Positions 1-3,000 of a DNA stretch of 64,000 nucleotides are shown here, one piece after another. The stretch lies in assembly GCF_003790525.1 (NCBI RefSeq), contig NZ_CP033635.1. One strand, written 5' to 3'. How positions within the stretch are numbered: the first letter of the stretch is position 1; each line of letters begins with the position of its first letter. This DNA comes from Escherichia coli. GTDB lineage: Bacteria > Pseudomonadota > Gammaproteobacteria > Enterobacterales > Enterobacteriaceae. The position numbers are program-made.

Positions 1-3000
1 TCGGTTGTTAAGTATCCCATCCCCCGCGCTGCAGCTACTGCCGGCAAGTTCATTTATGATGATGATTACTATTTTTACATTAACCTGCTTGCTGAAAATC
101 AGCTCGATTTGAATCCCGGAGAGAAAACGATTGATGCGCAGATAATGGATCTCGCGGATGAGATTGCCTACGCCGCGCATGACCTGGAAGATGCCCTTAG
201 CAGGAACATGGTCACGATTGAAGATATTGAATATGAGTTTCAGATTTCTGACGAATTCCGGGGAGCGAGGGAACAGTTCAGGGAAATCGTTACTCAGTCG
301 AGAAACACCGCTTTTCAGGCTAACTTACTGAAAACCTCAGAAGAATTTGCCATCATATTCCGCAAGGAGTTAACTTCAAATATTGTCAATCGCCTCGTTG
401 CAGATATTTCTGTAGTAACGAACCTGAATGGTTTTCAGGAACTGGGGTTCGGGAAACTGAATGCGTTATCCGAAGGACTCAAAAAACTTCTCTTTAAAGT
501 CATCATGCGAAAACGTAATATCCTCACCTATGAGTTCAGGGGAAATAAAATAATCAGGGATTTATATGACTTTTACAATGAAGGAGAGAATTATAAATTT
601 CTGCCTCCTGAACTTAAATTCACCTTACCCCAACCAGATTCCTGTATATTTGAAATCAGCAAAAAACGAGCAGTGGTTGACTATATTTCAGGTATGATGG
701 ATACATTTGCAGTCAAGGAATGGGAAACTCACTGTCTGAAGTAACACTGCCGATTACCAGAGGCGCATATTTTCCCGTTATGGTTATTGCGCCTTTATTC
801 CGTTTCGGTGACAGGTTATTTTAAATATTCTGGAAATGCGTTGATGGGCAAGAACAATTACCCTGAAAATAAATACAGGAAATGGTTTTCCACAGCAATA
901 ACATATCTTATTACAGGTGGTTTGTGCTGGTATATGTTGTGGGCATCCGCTATATCTCATTATACTGTTTTACAAAATACGGTACCTGAATGGACAACAT
1001 ATTTTTGCACCGGTATAATCACCGGATCTCTTTCTTTTATTTATGCATTTTATATCCGCACCTTTAACAGAACATTAAAGTCTTTATTAAATGCATTCAC
1101 GGGGGGATTTTGTCTTGGATTTATACTGAGTCCTGATGAATCCCCTAATGATTTTGATAAAAATCATTAGGGGATTCATCAGTGCTTGACCTTGTTTAAA
1201 AGCTGTAATATCGCAATTTACTAACTCAATATCTAAATCCATTGGCTTGGATGTACCTCCTGCCTCAAGGAAGCTTTTTGAAAGCTGTCCAAAATCAATA
1301 GACTGATCAGCTGATTTCTGAGAAATGCTGCATGGAGCATCAACAACAGTTCCGTTAAAAGTTACTTTACCCTGCCCCTGTGGAATAGTTGGAGCAGCAT
1401 TTACACCAAAAGACACCACTGCCATAGCTACCGCACCGGCAATAACCGACTTAATCATAAATAACAACCTCTTTTTCATTACTGAACACACCAGAGATAT
1501 CTGGCAATTTAAAATGACCCGATTACCTTTAATAACCAGATCAATACAAATAATATTCTCGTATTTTCAGGGCAGGTTATTTATCGACAGAATACTGATA
1601 TAACCTGTCTGCTTTCTGATAAGGACTTCTTTTTATCTGTAAGATAACTCCGGAATGCCATCATTCAGTCAAATGCCGACGACTCATCTGTATAATAAGG
1701 TGCAAGCCTTGCTGCAAGAGCATTCAGCCGTATAAGTCTCCCAAGTGTTGTACTGAAATACCCATTATTCATCTGGTATTTCTCGCAGACCTCCTTACGG
1801 GAGTGCCCACCTACCAGATAGTCCTTCATAGCCAGAATGACCCTGTCACTGTGAATAGAAGAAATACCTATCAGTAAAAAAAAATGCATTTCAGACATAG
1901 AGCCGGGCAACAGTACGCTCTCGCGTATATTCAGCAAAAACGCATTTCCTGACCGACTGATGACTTCATGATGCGCCATGTTTCCCCCTTCTGTCGGGCC
2001 CCTGGATATATGCTTCCGGCCCGGAAATACTCTTCACGCAATAAGTTAAATTTAGTTTTTTATGTTGTAAATATTGATTTAAACGATCTTTTAACCCACA
2101 AAATAAAATTAAACTAGAATAAAACACTAATAATAAGAATGCGCTCAGATAAAAACATCATAGTAAATTGAATTTACAGCATAAAAGATCGTCTAAATGC
2201 ATTTTTACGGACTTTCTTTTCACAGAAAAATAAAACGCAAAATGTGATACATATCAAATAAAGCAAATAAAAAGCAAATTCACTAAATTGCACAAATAAA
2301 GCAAACACAGCAAACACAGCAAACACAGAGAATAAAAATACCTTTCCGTTGATAACAGAAAGCATGATTTTTATTATTCGAAGAAACTTTGTTACAGTGA
2401 GATGAGTGAATATATGAAGAATGAAATACTGGAATTTCTGAACAGGCATGATGGAGGGAAAACGGCAGAAATTGCGGAGGCGCTGGCGGTAACGGATTAC
2501 CAGGCCCGCTATTACCTGTTATTACTGGAAAAAGCAGGTATGGTTCAGCGCTCACCATTAAGACGGGGCATGGCAACATACTGGCTTCTGAAAGGAGAGA
2601 AGCAGGCGGGGCAGAGTTGTTCACTTTGCAAACTCTGCCGACCAGTGGTGATCCGTTCGGTGACGGGATTGGCAAGGTAGCCGGGTCCAGCCTGCACGCC
2701 GGCGTGGCGGCCAGGGCCGATGAACGCAAGAAGCTCGAACGGCTGTGCCGGTACATCAGCCGCCCGGCGGTATCCGAGAAGCGGCTGTCGTTAACACGAG
2801 GCGGCAACGTGCGCTACCAGCTCAAGACGCCGTACCGGGACGGCACCACGCACGTCATTTTCGAACCATTGGATTTCATTGCAAGGCTGGCCGCCCTGGT
2901 ACCGAAGCCCAGAGTCAACCTAACCCGCTTCCACGGGGTGTTCGCACCCAACAGTCGGCACCGGGCGTTGGTCACGCCGGCAAAACGGGGCAGGGGCAAC

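Follow-up and report, generated by a model that had tools for sequence, protein, structure and literature searches.

A probable cargo-less remnant of P-fimbrial regulation beside a multidrug-resistance cluster in Escherichia coli

The window (the whole stretch of E. coli DNA that was analysed, 64 kb) carries the regulatory end of a pap operon. We conclude that this cassette is very probably a recent, cargo-less remnant of the regulation of a papGII-type P-fimbrial operon, situated on a tRNA-Phe island beside a multidrug-resistance cluster. It belongs to an already known system and is a common, ordinary genomic relic, not a new system.

The pap cassette and its identity to intact operons

Window positions 1183-2622 match the intact pap operon of E. 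coli ATCC 11775 at 1439 of 1440 positions, and the resemblance is therefore not due to chance. The sole mismatch, C versus A at position 2144, lies in the papI-papB intergenic region. The match to the intact operon of strain PU-1, which is 100% starting at 1183, shows zero substitutions across the same interval, with one extra 9-bp repeat as the sole difference. An alignment with intact pap operons had been proposed in an earlier note on this DNA as a way to define the breakpoints; it places them at 1183 and at 2618-2622. With substitutions so close to zero, neither selection nor neutrality is measurable from the cassette. The following features make up the cassette and its borders.

844-1132, plus strand: 5´ half of a hypothetical membrane-protein gene (96 of 189 codons), interrupted by the IS10 scar, with an ORF that stays open to 1170
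1133-1182: IS10/Tn10 double-end scar of 50 bp, made up of a 23-bp IS10 outside-end repeat, GATA and the inverted 23-bp repeat
1183-1191: Tn10 target site in papA, 9 bp, TGCTTGACC
1183-1458, minus strand: papA remnant, codons 1-92 of 182, encoding the signal peptide and the N-terminal part of the pilin
1459-1664, minus strand: papB-papA intercistronic region, identical to ATCC 11775
1665-1979, minus strand: papB, intact, 104 aa, identical to PapB WP_000930062.1 of intact operons
1980-2401: papI-papB intergenic switch region, 422 bp, with one mismatch to ATCC 11775; PU-1 differs only in repeat number
2402-2622, plus strand: papI remnant, codons 1-73 plus two bases
2402-2680, plus strand: papI fusion ORF, PapI residues 1-74 plus 18 foreign residues (92 aa, WP_001349530.1)
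2603-2622: recombination joint, with patchy 20-bp papI/ISCR2 similarity (CAGGCGGGGC ... TGTTC) and the crossover in TGTTC at 2618-2622
2623-3270, plus strand: ISCR2 (ISVsa3) transposase gene, 3´ part, starting near codon 281 of 497

The earlier description of the cassette as orphaned holds, as the 64-kb window contains no pap structural gene, and blastn gave no match within it for the 3´ part of papA or for papH to papG. The chaperone-usher operon that the switch controls (papAHCDJKEFG) is thus absent downstream, papA being cut at codon 92. Only one pap-like place is present in most of the carrier genomes. Insertion of the resistance island into an otherwise complete pap operon was considered and rejected, given that the window has no further pap gene and that the left flank is an unrelated gene.

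The PapB and PapI families were assigned by Pfam, since NCBIfam has no model for either. That papB is intact, as the note had stated, is borne out by the identity of its protein to PapB of intact operons, and the gene matches Pfam PapB (PF03333) over model positions 7-91 of 91 (E = 1.1e-36). A terminator-like hairpin (1543-1515) is found in the papB-papA region, as it is in the intact operon. For papA, truncation was correctly recognized but its extent was not: comparison with the ATCC 11775 protein (PapA WP_000597759.1, 182 aa), to which the N-terminal 92 residues are identical, shows that 92 of 182 codons are kept, not about 88. The shorter estimate, with its start at 1195, is explained by more distant papA variants, which stop aligning at 1196. 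The protein comparison also excludes the alternative that papA or papI are natural full-length variants. The papA open frame continues through the IS10 scar to 1087, giving 123 aa of which the last 31 are unrelated. RefSeq genomes annotate the papA remnant as partial papA.

The switch region and the PapI fusion protein

Within the intergenic region, the elements of a pap switch were located as follows.

2043-2071, minus strand: putative papBA promoter (-35 TTTACA at 2066-2071, 17-nt spacer, -10 TAACTT at 2043-2048, start near 2036)
2078-2097: promoter-proximal GATC box, with GATC at 2085-2088 within AAACGATCTTTTAA, invariant in six pap loci
2178-2197: distal GATC box, with GATC at 2187-2190 within TTAGACGATCTTTTAT (minus strand), invariant in six pap loci
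2244-2259: putative CRP box, TGTGATACATATCAAA, assigned by consensus and position
2255-2328: A/T-rich zone of 9-bp periodicity, ending in the variable-number repeat AGCAAACAC (three copies at 2300-2328)
2349-2377, plus strand: papI promoter (TTGATA, 17 nt, TATTAT; 10 of 12 consensus matches), at the same site in ATCC 11775

The two GATC sites noted earlier are indeed 102 bp apart, start to start, on recomputation, and they are the only two in the 422-bp region, where composition leads one to expect about 1.1. TTAGACGATCTTTTAT is the inverted counterpart of AAACGATCTTTTAA, each box contains ACGATC, and the boxes sit in 45-nt inverted-repeat arms (2067-2111 and 2164-2208). In the pap model the proximal box is Lrp site 2 and the distal box Lrp site 5 (PMC11316696). 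The papBA promoter was missed by a consensus scan, as expected for an activator-dependent promoter; it was placed where it is because the CRP box, centred at 2251.5, then falls at -215.5 from the putative start, the distance named in the title of Weyand et al. 2001, as cited in PMC11316696. This promoter sequence is invariant across all aligned pap loci, while the diverged operon of pB16EC0942 has one base changed in the CRP-box-like sequence.

The reported run of 9-bp tandem repeats is real: Tandem Repeats Finder delimits it to 2255-2323, with a period of 9, 7.4 copies and 70% matches; its perfect core, at 2300-2328, comprises 3.2 copies of AGCAAACAC. The repeat is present in 1, 3, 4, 5 or 8 copies in other loci, and the idea that it is a peculiarity of the orphan was rejected, as intact operons carry 1 to 4 copies. 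By position, the repeat zone is the stretch of the high-affinity PapB site 1, which has been placed between the CRP box and the papI promoter (PMC11316696). The layout of the predicted CRP, PapB site 1 and papI promoter elements agrees with the positions given in that paper, and CRP box, repeat zone and papI promoter are unchanged relative to intact operons.

The papI gene is truncated, and its right-hand partner is ISCR2-derived, both as the note had claimed, but the loss is of three codons (S-T-T) and not of about seven, with 74 of 77 residues kept; a functional PapI is therefore likelier than had been assumed. Pfam FaeA (PF04703) covers residues 5-64 of the fusion protein (model 1-61 of 62), and the PapI structure PDB 2HTJ aligns to residues 5-76. 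AlphaFold2 predicts a helix-turn-helix fold for residues 3-62 (pLDDT 76-83) and pLDDT below 50 for residues 65-92. Given that the cis elements and PapB are unchanged and that the winged-helix domain of PapI is whole, the classical switch should still work, and it is probably still able to flip, without fimbrial output. It would then act as a Dam/Lrp/PapI/PapB/CRP epigenetic switch, with most cells OFF (Lrp occupying the proximal sites, and methylation at the distal but not at the proximal GATC) and rare cells ON with the pattern reversed. ON cells would yield only PapB, the PapI fusion and a 123-aa piece of PapA that is unable to assemble.

A switch without PapI stays OFF. We think it unlikely, although worth weighing, that the cassette is locked in that state, with an unstable or inactive PapI fusion, Lrp never reaching the distal sites, papBA repressed and the DNA transcriptionally inert. 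The fusion has exchanged the last three native residues and the stop codon for 18 foreign residues, a hydrophobic tail with three Cys that could destabilise PapI; AlphaFold2 confidence for the whole is only moderate (mean pLDDT 64.9); and absence of the switch from about 21 genomes (IS1 being found in the three examined) has no obvious effect on persistence of the island. However, the FaeA/PapI domain is intact over its whole length, the joint sits in a tail predicted to be disordered, and the C-terminal tails of natural family members vary in length and sequence, ending at various places after about residue 65. The unchanged papI promoter and PapB site 1 zone likewise argue against a locked cassette.

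Junctions and their distribution among genomes

The right-hand joint was mapped by three-way comparison of the window, intact papI and intact ISCR2. Here the 3´ end of papI passes, through a TGTTC microhomology, into the interior of the ISCR2 transposase gene, whose reading frame differs from that of papI. The ISCR2 remnant matches the NCBIfam ISCR clade Ia model over positions 289-508 of 509; a complete ISCR2 transposase gene with element ends is not present, the joint being internal at about codon 281 of 497. A simple scan of the plus strand found no native terminator 3´ of papI in the intact operon, and hence loss of a terminator through the ISCR2 fusion cannot be claimed.

On the left, the arms of the scar are 100% complementary (23 + 4 + 23 bp), and the folding energy of its RNA is -38.9 kcal/mol (z = -9.5). 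It is identical, including the GATA variant, to the IS10 end that abuts the papA remnant in strain CT30. In CT30 a complete Tn10 sits in papA between two copies of TGCTTGACC, and papI is joined to ISCR2 as it is in the window. Nearly precise excision of Tn10, reportedly described by Foster et al. in 1981, is said to leave 50 bp and to occur between short repeats in the IS10 ends. The scar resembles such a remnant in being exactly 50 bp long, with a 4-nt loop that separates two IS10 outside ends of 23 bp each, and in its location at the site where CT30 still has Tn10. It differs in that its flanks do not match: TGCTTGACC of papA on the right faces TACTGAGTC of the unrelated hypothetical gene on the left, with no 9-bp target duplication. 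An extra IS10-mediated rearrangement is therefore required, either a deletion or an exchange that involved two copies of IS10; with a scar that lacks matching 9-bp flanks, any exact order of the left-side IS10 events is a reconstruction. The interrupted gene is found at full length in strain M22546 (WP_001304556.1, 189 aa), adjoining the dGTPase gene, and the truncated ORF has no family match in NCBIfam or PADLOC.

Comparison of genomes shows a history of three steps. Tn10 entered codon 92 of papA in an operon that was still intact and resembled the one in ATCC 11775; illegitimate recombination at the TGTTC microhomology linked the 3´ end of papI to an internal point of the ISCR2 transposase gene; and, in the lineage of the window, Tn10 and all distal pap genes were then lost, leaving the 50-bp scar joined to an unrelated gene.

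The papI-ISCR2 junction is present in 187 of 5426 complete E. coli genomes, 166 of which keep the switch and 128 of which have the exact left junction seen here, and the papI fusion protein is found on at least 1000 contigs. The switch is absent from about 21 of the 187. Three of these loci were examined (L013, L017 and L022), and in each of them IS1 has deleted all that lay to the left of window position 2355, a break that takes away the -35 of the papI promoter. This decay series supports the option, raised earlier, of a decaying relic, and the remnant would be hitchhiking with the island while being eroded, with no sign of selective upkeep. Retention in 166 of 187 carriers is also expected if the switch is useful.

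Such a use could lie in trans, with the orphan kept since PapB (and PapI) vary in phase; PapB would inhibit FimB and stimulate FimE at the switch of type 1 fimbriae and so make adhesion heterogeneous. PapB is intact, its cross-talk to fim is established (PMC11316696), and an ST10 isolate has been listed with fimA-I and with papB and papI as its only pap genes (PMC9467903). We nevertheless regard a role in trans as very unlikely. The whole fim locus is missing from most ST167 strains, E. coli Sanji being ST167 (PMC12405470), papB and the switch were lost to IS1 in some lineages, most carriers are without a pap-like target operon, and recency alone explains the identity to intact operons. 

Neighbouring genes and comparison with known systems

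The ISCR2 remnant leads to DUF3363, floR (4402-5616), tet(A), strAB and sul2, and the dGTPase gene (plus strand, ending at 744) matches the PADLOC dGTPase model at 2e-109. Read-through into the dGTPase-like module, as the earlier note had envisaged it, does not fit the orientation of the genes: papBA is on the minus strand, dGTPase (to 744) and the small ORF (844-1170) have the opposite, plus-strand orientation, and papBA read-through toward them is thus antisense. The papBA transcript would run antisense over the truncated ORF and the dGTPase gene, no terminator-like site being found on the minus strand between the papA remnant and position 700, and the papI transcript would run into the ISCR2 remnant, with one weak terminator-like site (5-pair stem, 3058-3073) between papI and floR on the same strand. 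A very unlikely reading is that the switch was co-opted as a phase-variable promoter, sense from papI into the ISCR2 remnant, DUF3363 and floR and antisense from papBA to the truncated ORF and a dGTPase of anti-phage type: although strand, near-lack of terminators and the dGTPase match would allow it, floR, 1.7 kb downstream, functions widely in other contexts that lack papI, ON cells are normally rare, the perfect 23-bp hairpin of the scar may stop or process an antisense transcript, and neighbours vary by carrier type (CT30 has sul2 directly next, and Tn10 in place of the dGTPase side), so that the juxtaposition is accidental. Only a slender probability attaches to the combined outcome in which the switch flips and a minority of cells in widespread multidrug-resistant E. 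coli lineages make PapB and PapI, antisense RNA over dGTPase and read-through toward floR; if true, the relic of a virulence operon would make cells differ heritably in the control of adhesion, in phage defence or in resistance to florfenicol.

An Rfam scan of the whole window at gathering thresholds detected no RNA family, and a tRNA scan found no tRNA. Colinearity with strain EC12 to the end of the window was rejected, since beyond about 34 kb the arrangement is that of Sanji, next to cadC.

As a cargo-less remnant, the locus bears on how pap genes are counted. Matches to papB and papI in resistant phylogroup A strains, such as the ST10 isolate above, are this remnant and not P fimbriae; screens for virulence genes in which such matches are counted exaggerate virulence, and associations reported between pap and resistance genes may be inflated by them. 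A search for papers on papI or papB with floR or sul2 gave gene lists only, with no description of the papI-ISCR2 joint, and the Sanji genome paper (PacBio; PMC6392093) has no methylation data and no mention of a pap remnant. Knowledge of how the pap switch works is unchanged by this locus and its practical value is small, but it provides a clean, datable series of the steps through which Tn10, IS10, ISCR2 and IS1 take apart a virulence operon beside a resistance cluster, as well as a natural switch without cargo that is usable to ask if the pap epigenetic switch runs autonomously.

The resistance side is arranged in the same way as the 8.9-kb cluster of E. coli Sanji (PMC6392093), with the 3´ part of ISCR2, DUF3363, floR, a truncated lysR, tet(A), strAB and sul2. 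Unlike ISCR2-floR/sul2 modules, it lacks the first ~280 codons of ISCR2, and it is joined to papI by microhomology and not at an element end. The cassette itself is the same DNA as the Dam/Lrp/PapI/PapB switch of uropathogenic E. coli, sharing divergent papI and papB around 422 bp, two GATC boxes 102 bp apart in inverted repeats, the CRP box, the PapB site 1 zone and both promoters; it differs from the pap system in that the downstream structural genes are missing (papH-G absent) and the C-terminal tip of PapI is replaced. The ST131 strain EC958 likewise has an eroded pap locus with a conserved intergenic switch, but there papB is truncated (54 aa) and papA is frameshifted yet present, whereas here papB is intact and the operon has been physically removed.

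The switch region and its 9-bp repeats

A GATC pair spaced 102 bp, an intact papB and a run of 9-bp tandem repeats, all described in the earlier note, were recovered here. The two GATC sites were read directly at 2085-2088 and 2187-2190, and there is no other GATC in the 422-bp papB-papI intergenic region. On the minus strand, papB (1665-1979) is complete, with 104 codons and the full Pfam PapB domain, and its product is identical to PapB of intact operons. ATCC 11775, the E. coli type strain, has an intact pap operon from which 1183-2622 of the window departs at one of 1440 positions (2144), so the resemblance to pap is not due to chance; compared with the intact operon of PU-1, there are no substitutions, and PU-1 has one 9-bp unit more. 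All of the cis elements of the textbook pap model (PMC11316696) are in place and unchanged at the sequence level:

Inferred papBA promoter, 2043-2071, which sets the CRP box at -215.5
GATC boxes, two, ACGATC-containing, in inverted repeats, unchanged
PapB site 1 zone, present, unchanged
CRP box, 2244-2259
papI promoter, 2349-2377

The 9-bp periodicity extends over 2255-2328. Its three perfect copies of AGCAAACAC (2300-2328) fall between the CRP box and the papI promoter. Unit number varies among pap loci from other genomes (L002, L004, L005, L006, L012, L018, L021), with one copy in EC958 and pB16EC0942, three in the window and ATCC 11775, four in PU-1, five in L018, and eight in CT30 and L021. 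The repeats are part of the normal pap regulatory region. Each unit shifts the upstream activator sites relative to the papI promoter by 9 bp.

Breakpoints in papA and papI

The reported truncation of papA and fusion of papI to ISCR2 were both borne out, though with other sizes: papA keeps 92 of 182 codons (1183-1458) rather than ~88, and PapI 74 of 77 residues rather than ~70. papA stops at a scar, a 50-bp perfect palindrome (1133-1182) in which a pair of 23-bp IS10 outside ends encloses GATA. In CT30, a complete Tn10 (tetB) sits in papA at exactly this position, with the 9-bp target TGCTTGACC duplicated on both sides and, beyond it, the 3´ part of papA, papH, C´, K, E, F, G-II and tia; the GATA variant also is found in the CT30 IS10 end. 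To the left of the scar, the window has not papA but the 5´ half of a gene of 189 codons, which is unrelated and usually comes after the dGTPase gene, for example in strain M22546. The two 9-bp flanks do not match, indicating that an IS10-mediated deletion, or exchange between two IS10 copies, came before the reduction to a scar. The scar can be assigned to the Tn10 "nearly precise excision" type, a marker of past IS10-mediated rearrangement; this name and the 50-bp size reportedly go back to Foster et al. in 1981. As RNA, the scar is predicted to form a 23-bp perfect hairpin (-38.9 kcal/mol).

At the other breakpoint, Ser-Thr-Thr alone is lost from PapI and is replaced by 18 residues encoded by ISCR2 DNA in another frame, giving a 92-aa product (RefSeq WP_001349530.1). 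The papI side reads ...CAGGCGGGGCAGAGTTGTTC, then ISCR2, and the corresponding intact ISCR2 sequence is CAGGCGGGGCGAAAGGTGTTC, around codon ~281 of the 497-codon transposase gene. At the joint (2603-2622), papI resembles the mid-part of that gene over 20 bp in a patchy way, through a 10-bp identical block and TGTTC, and the comparison of papI with intact ISCR2 shows illegitimate recombination in TGTTC rather than a transposition end. The joint is an instance of microhomology-mediated fusion that made a new 92-aa ORF, and gene-calling programs record this ORF as a complete protein. Downstream are DUF3363, floR, lysR´, tet(A)/tetR, strAB and sul2, which make up the 8.9-kb cluster reported from strain Sanji (PMC6392093).

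Genomic setting, distribution and decay

The remnant is located in a tRNA-Phe genomic island, and no pap structural genes were found anywhere in the 64-kb window. The pap locus of both CT30 and ATCC 11775 is in the pheV island. The window-type island adjoins yghD/gspL in EC12 (pheV side) and cadC in Sanji and the window (pheU side; ~34050-36218; loci L003 and L024), so it occupies either tRNA-Phe site, depending on the strain. An integrase fragment is present in the window at ~34261-34420. Within 1-1170, the dGTPase-family gene at the left edge encodes a protein that in full (WP_000271619.1) matches the PADLOC anti-phage dGTPase model (2e-109), and the following 189-codon membrane-protein gene, which has no family, is cut by the IS10 scar at codon 96; should the two genes function jointly, they would be disabled in the window. 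In island loci extending left of the window (L014-L016, L019, L020; positions 1-1631), a thymidylate-synthase-like gene lies directly upstream of the dGTPase gene and next to a gene encoding aGPT-Pplase3 and ADDT domains, with a MazG-like gene further on, a set that recalls phage thymidine hypermodification genes. More than 13 kb of the island, from dGTPase through YfjI and with the pap remnant, also is carried by the IncI-gamma/K1 NDM-5 plasmid pNDM5_LS003 (L009, NZ_OP290546.1), where the right arm of the scar lacks 27 bp, which may reflect true loss or misassembly of the palindrome.

The papI-ISCR2 joint was detected in 187 of 5426 complete E. coli genomes, 166 of which keep the switch region and 128 the exact left joint of the window. 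The 92-aa fusion protein is found on at least 1000 contigs and the remnant is annotated in >100 RefSeq genomes; discussion of it was not found in the papers searched. Ten sampled loci fell into three types: the window type, a type with Tn10/IS10 still beside papA´, and a type in which an IS1 end adjoins window position 2355 (L013, L017, L022; positions 5201-6000). The IS1 type has lost papA´, papB, both GATC sites, the CRP box, the repeat zone and the papI promoter -35, and the papI-ISCR2 fusion gene alone survives, adjoining Tn10 tetB. The decay series thus runs from the intact operon through Tn10 and ISCR2 hits to loss of the structural genes and then of the switch. The sampled window-type orphans carry only two singleton substitutions, both in the intergenic region (L014, window-equivalent 2003; L020, 2114), one in the papB leader and one between the GATC boxes, too few to interpret. 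The pap locus of the much-studied ST131 strain EC958 (L012) has decayed too, with papB annotated as 54 aa, papA frameshifted and the intergenic switch conserved.

Possible residual activity and comparison with the classical switch

The FaeA/PapI domain (residues 5-64) is wholly kept in the PapI fusion, and natural PapI relatives vary in their end points beyond residue ~65. In an AlphaFold2 model, residues 3-62 take up a winged-helix fold (pLDDT 76-83), with pLDDT <50 for residues 65-92. Given these features, the unchanged cis elements and the identical PapB, the chances that the cassette can still switch appear roughly even to good. Expression in ON cells would be limited to PapB, the PapI fusion and a PapA fragment of 123 aa, which would be without the C-terminal half required for folding and assembly.

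Where carriers are fim-positive, PapB might conceivably influence the type 1 fimbrial switch in trans; the genes listed for one ST10 isolate include fimA-I and, from pap, papB and papI alone (PMC9467903), but fim is wholly missing from most ST167 strains (PMC12405470) and papB already has been lost in some lineages. No evidence of selection on the remnant was seen, and its near-identity to intact operons is attributed to recency. Read-through into the dGTPase module, raised in the earlier note, does not fit the orientations: papBA transcription runs along the minus strand, opposite to the small ORF and the dGTPase gene, which are both plus-strand genes, so that read-through would be antisense at most. 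Such a transcript would run first into the perfect hairpin of the scar; no terminator-like site was found on the minus strand past this hairpin as far as position 700. The papI transcript is directed toward floR, 1.7 kb away, with a single weak terminator-like site in between. We consider it very improbable that the relic still yields phase-variable regulators and transcripts acting on its new neighbours.

Elements of this kind are already known, and the decay of this one is ordinary. Its chief uses are as a warning in virulence-gene screening and as a natural "switch without cargo". It belongs to the classical pap Dam/Lrp/PapI/PapB switch, with which its cis elements and divergent regulator genes agree at the sequence level; PapI has a foreign C-terminal tip, and the downstream fimbrial operon, which gives such a switch its purpose, is missing.
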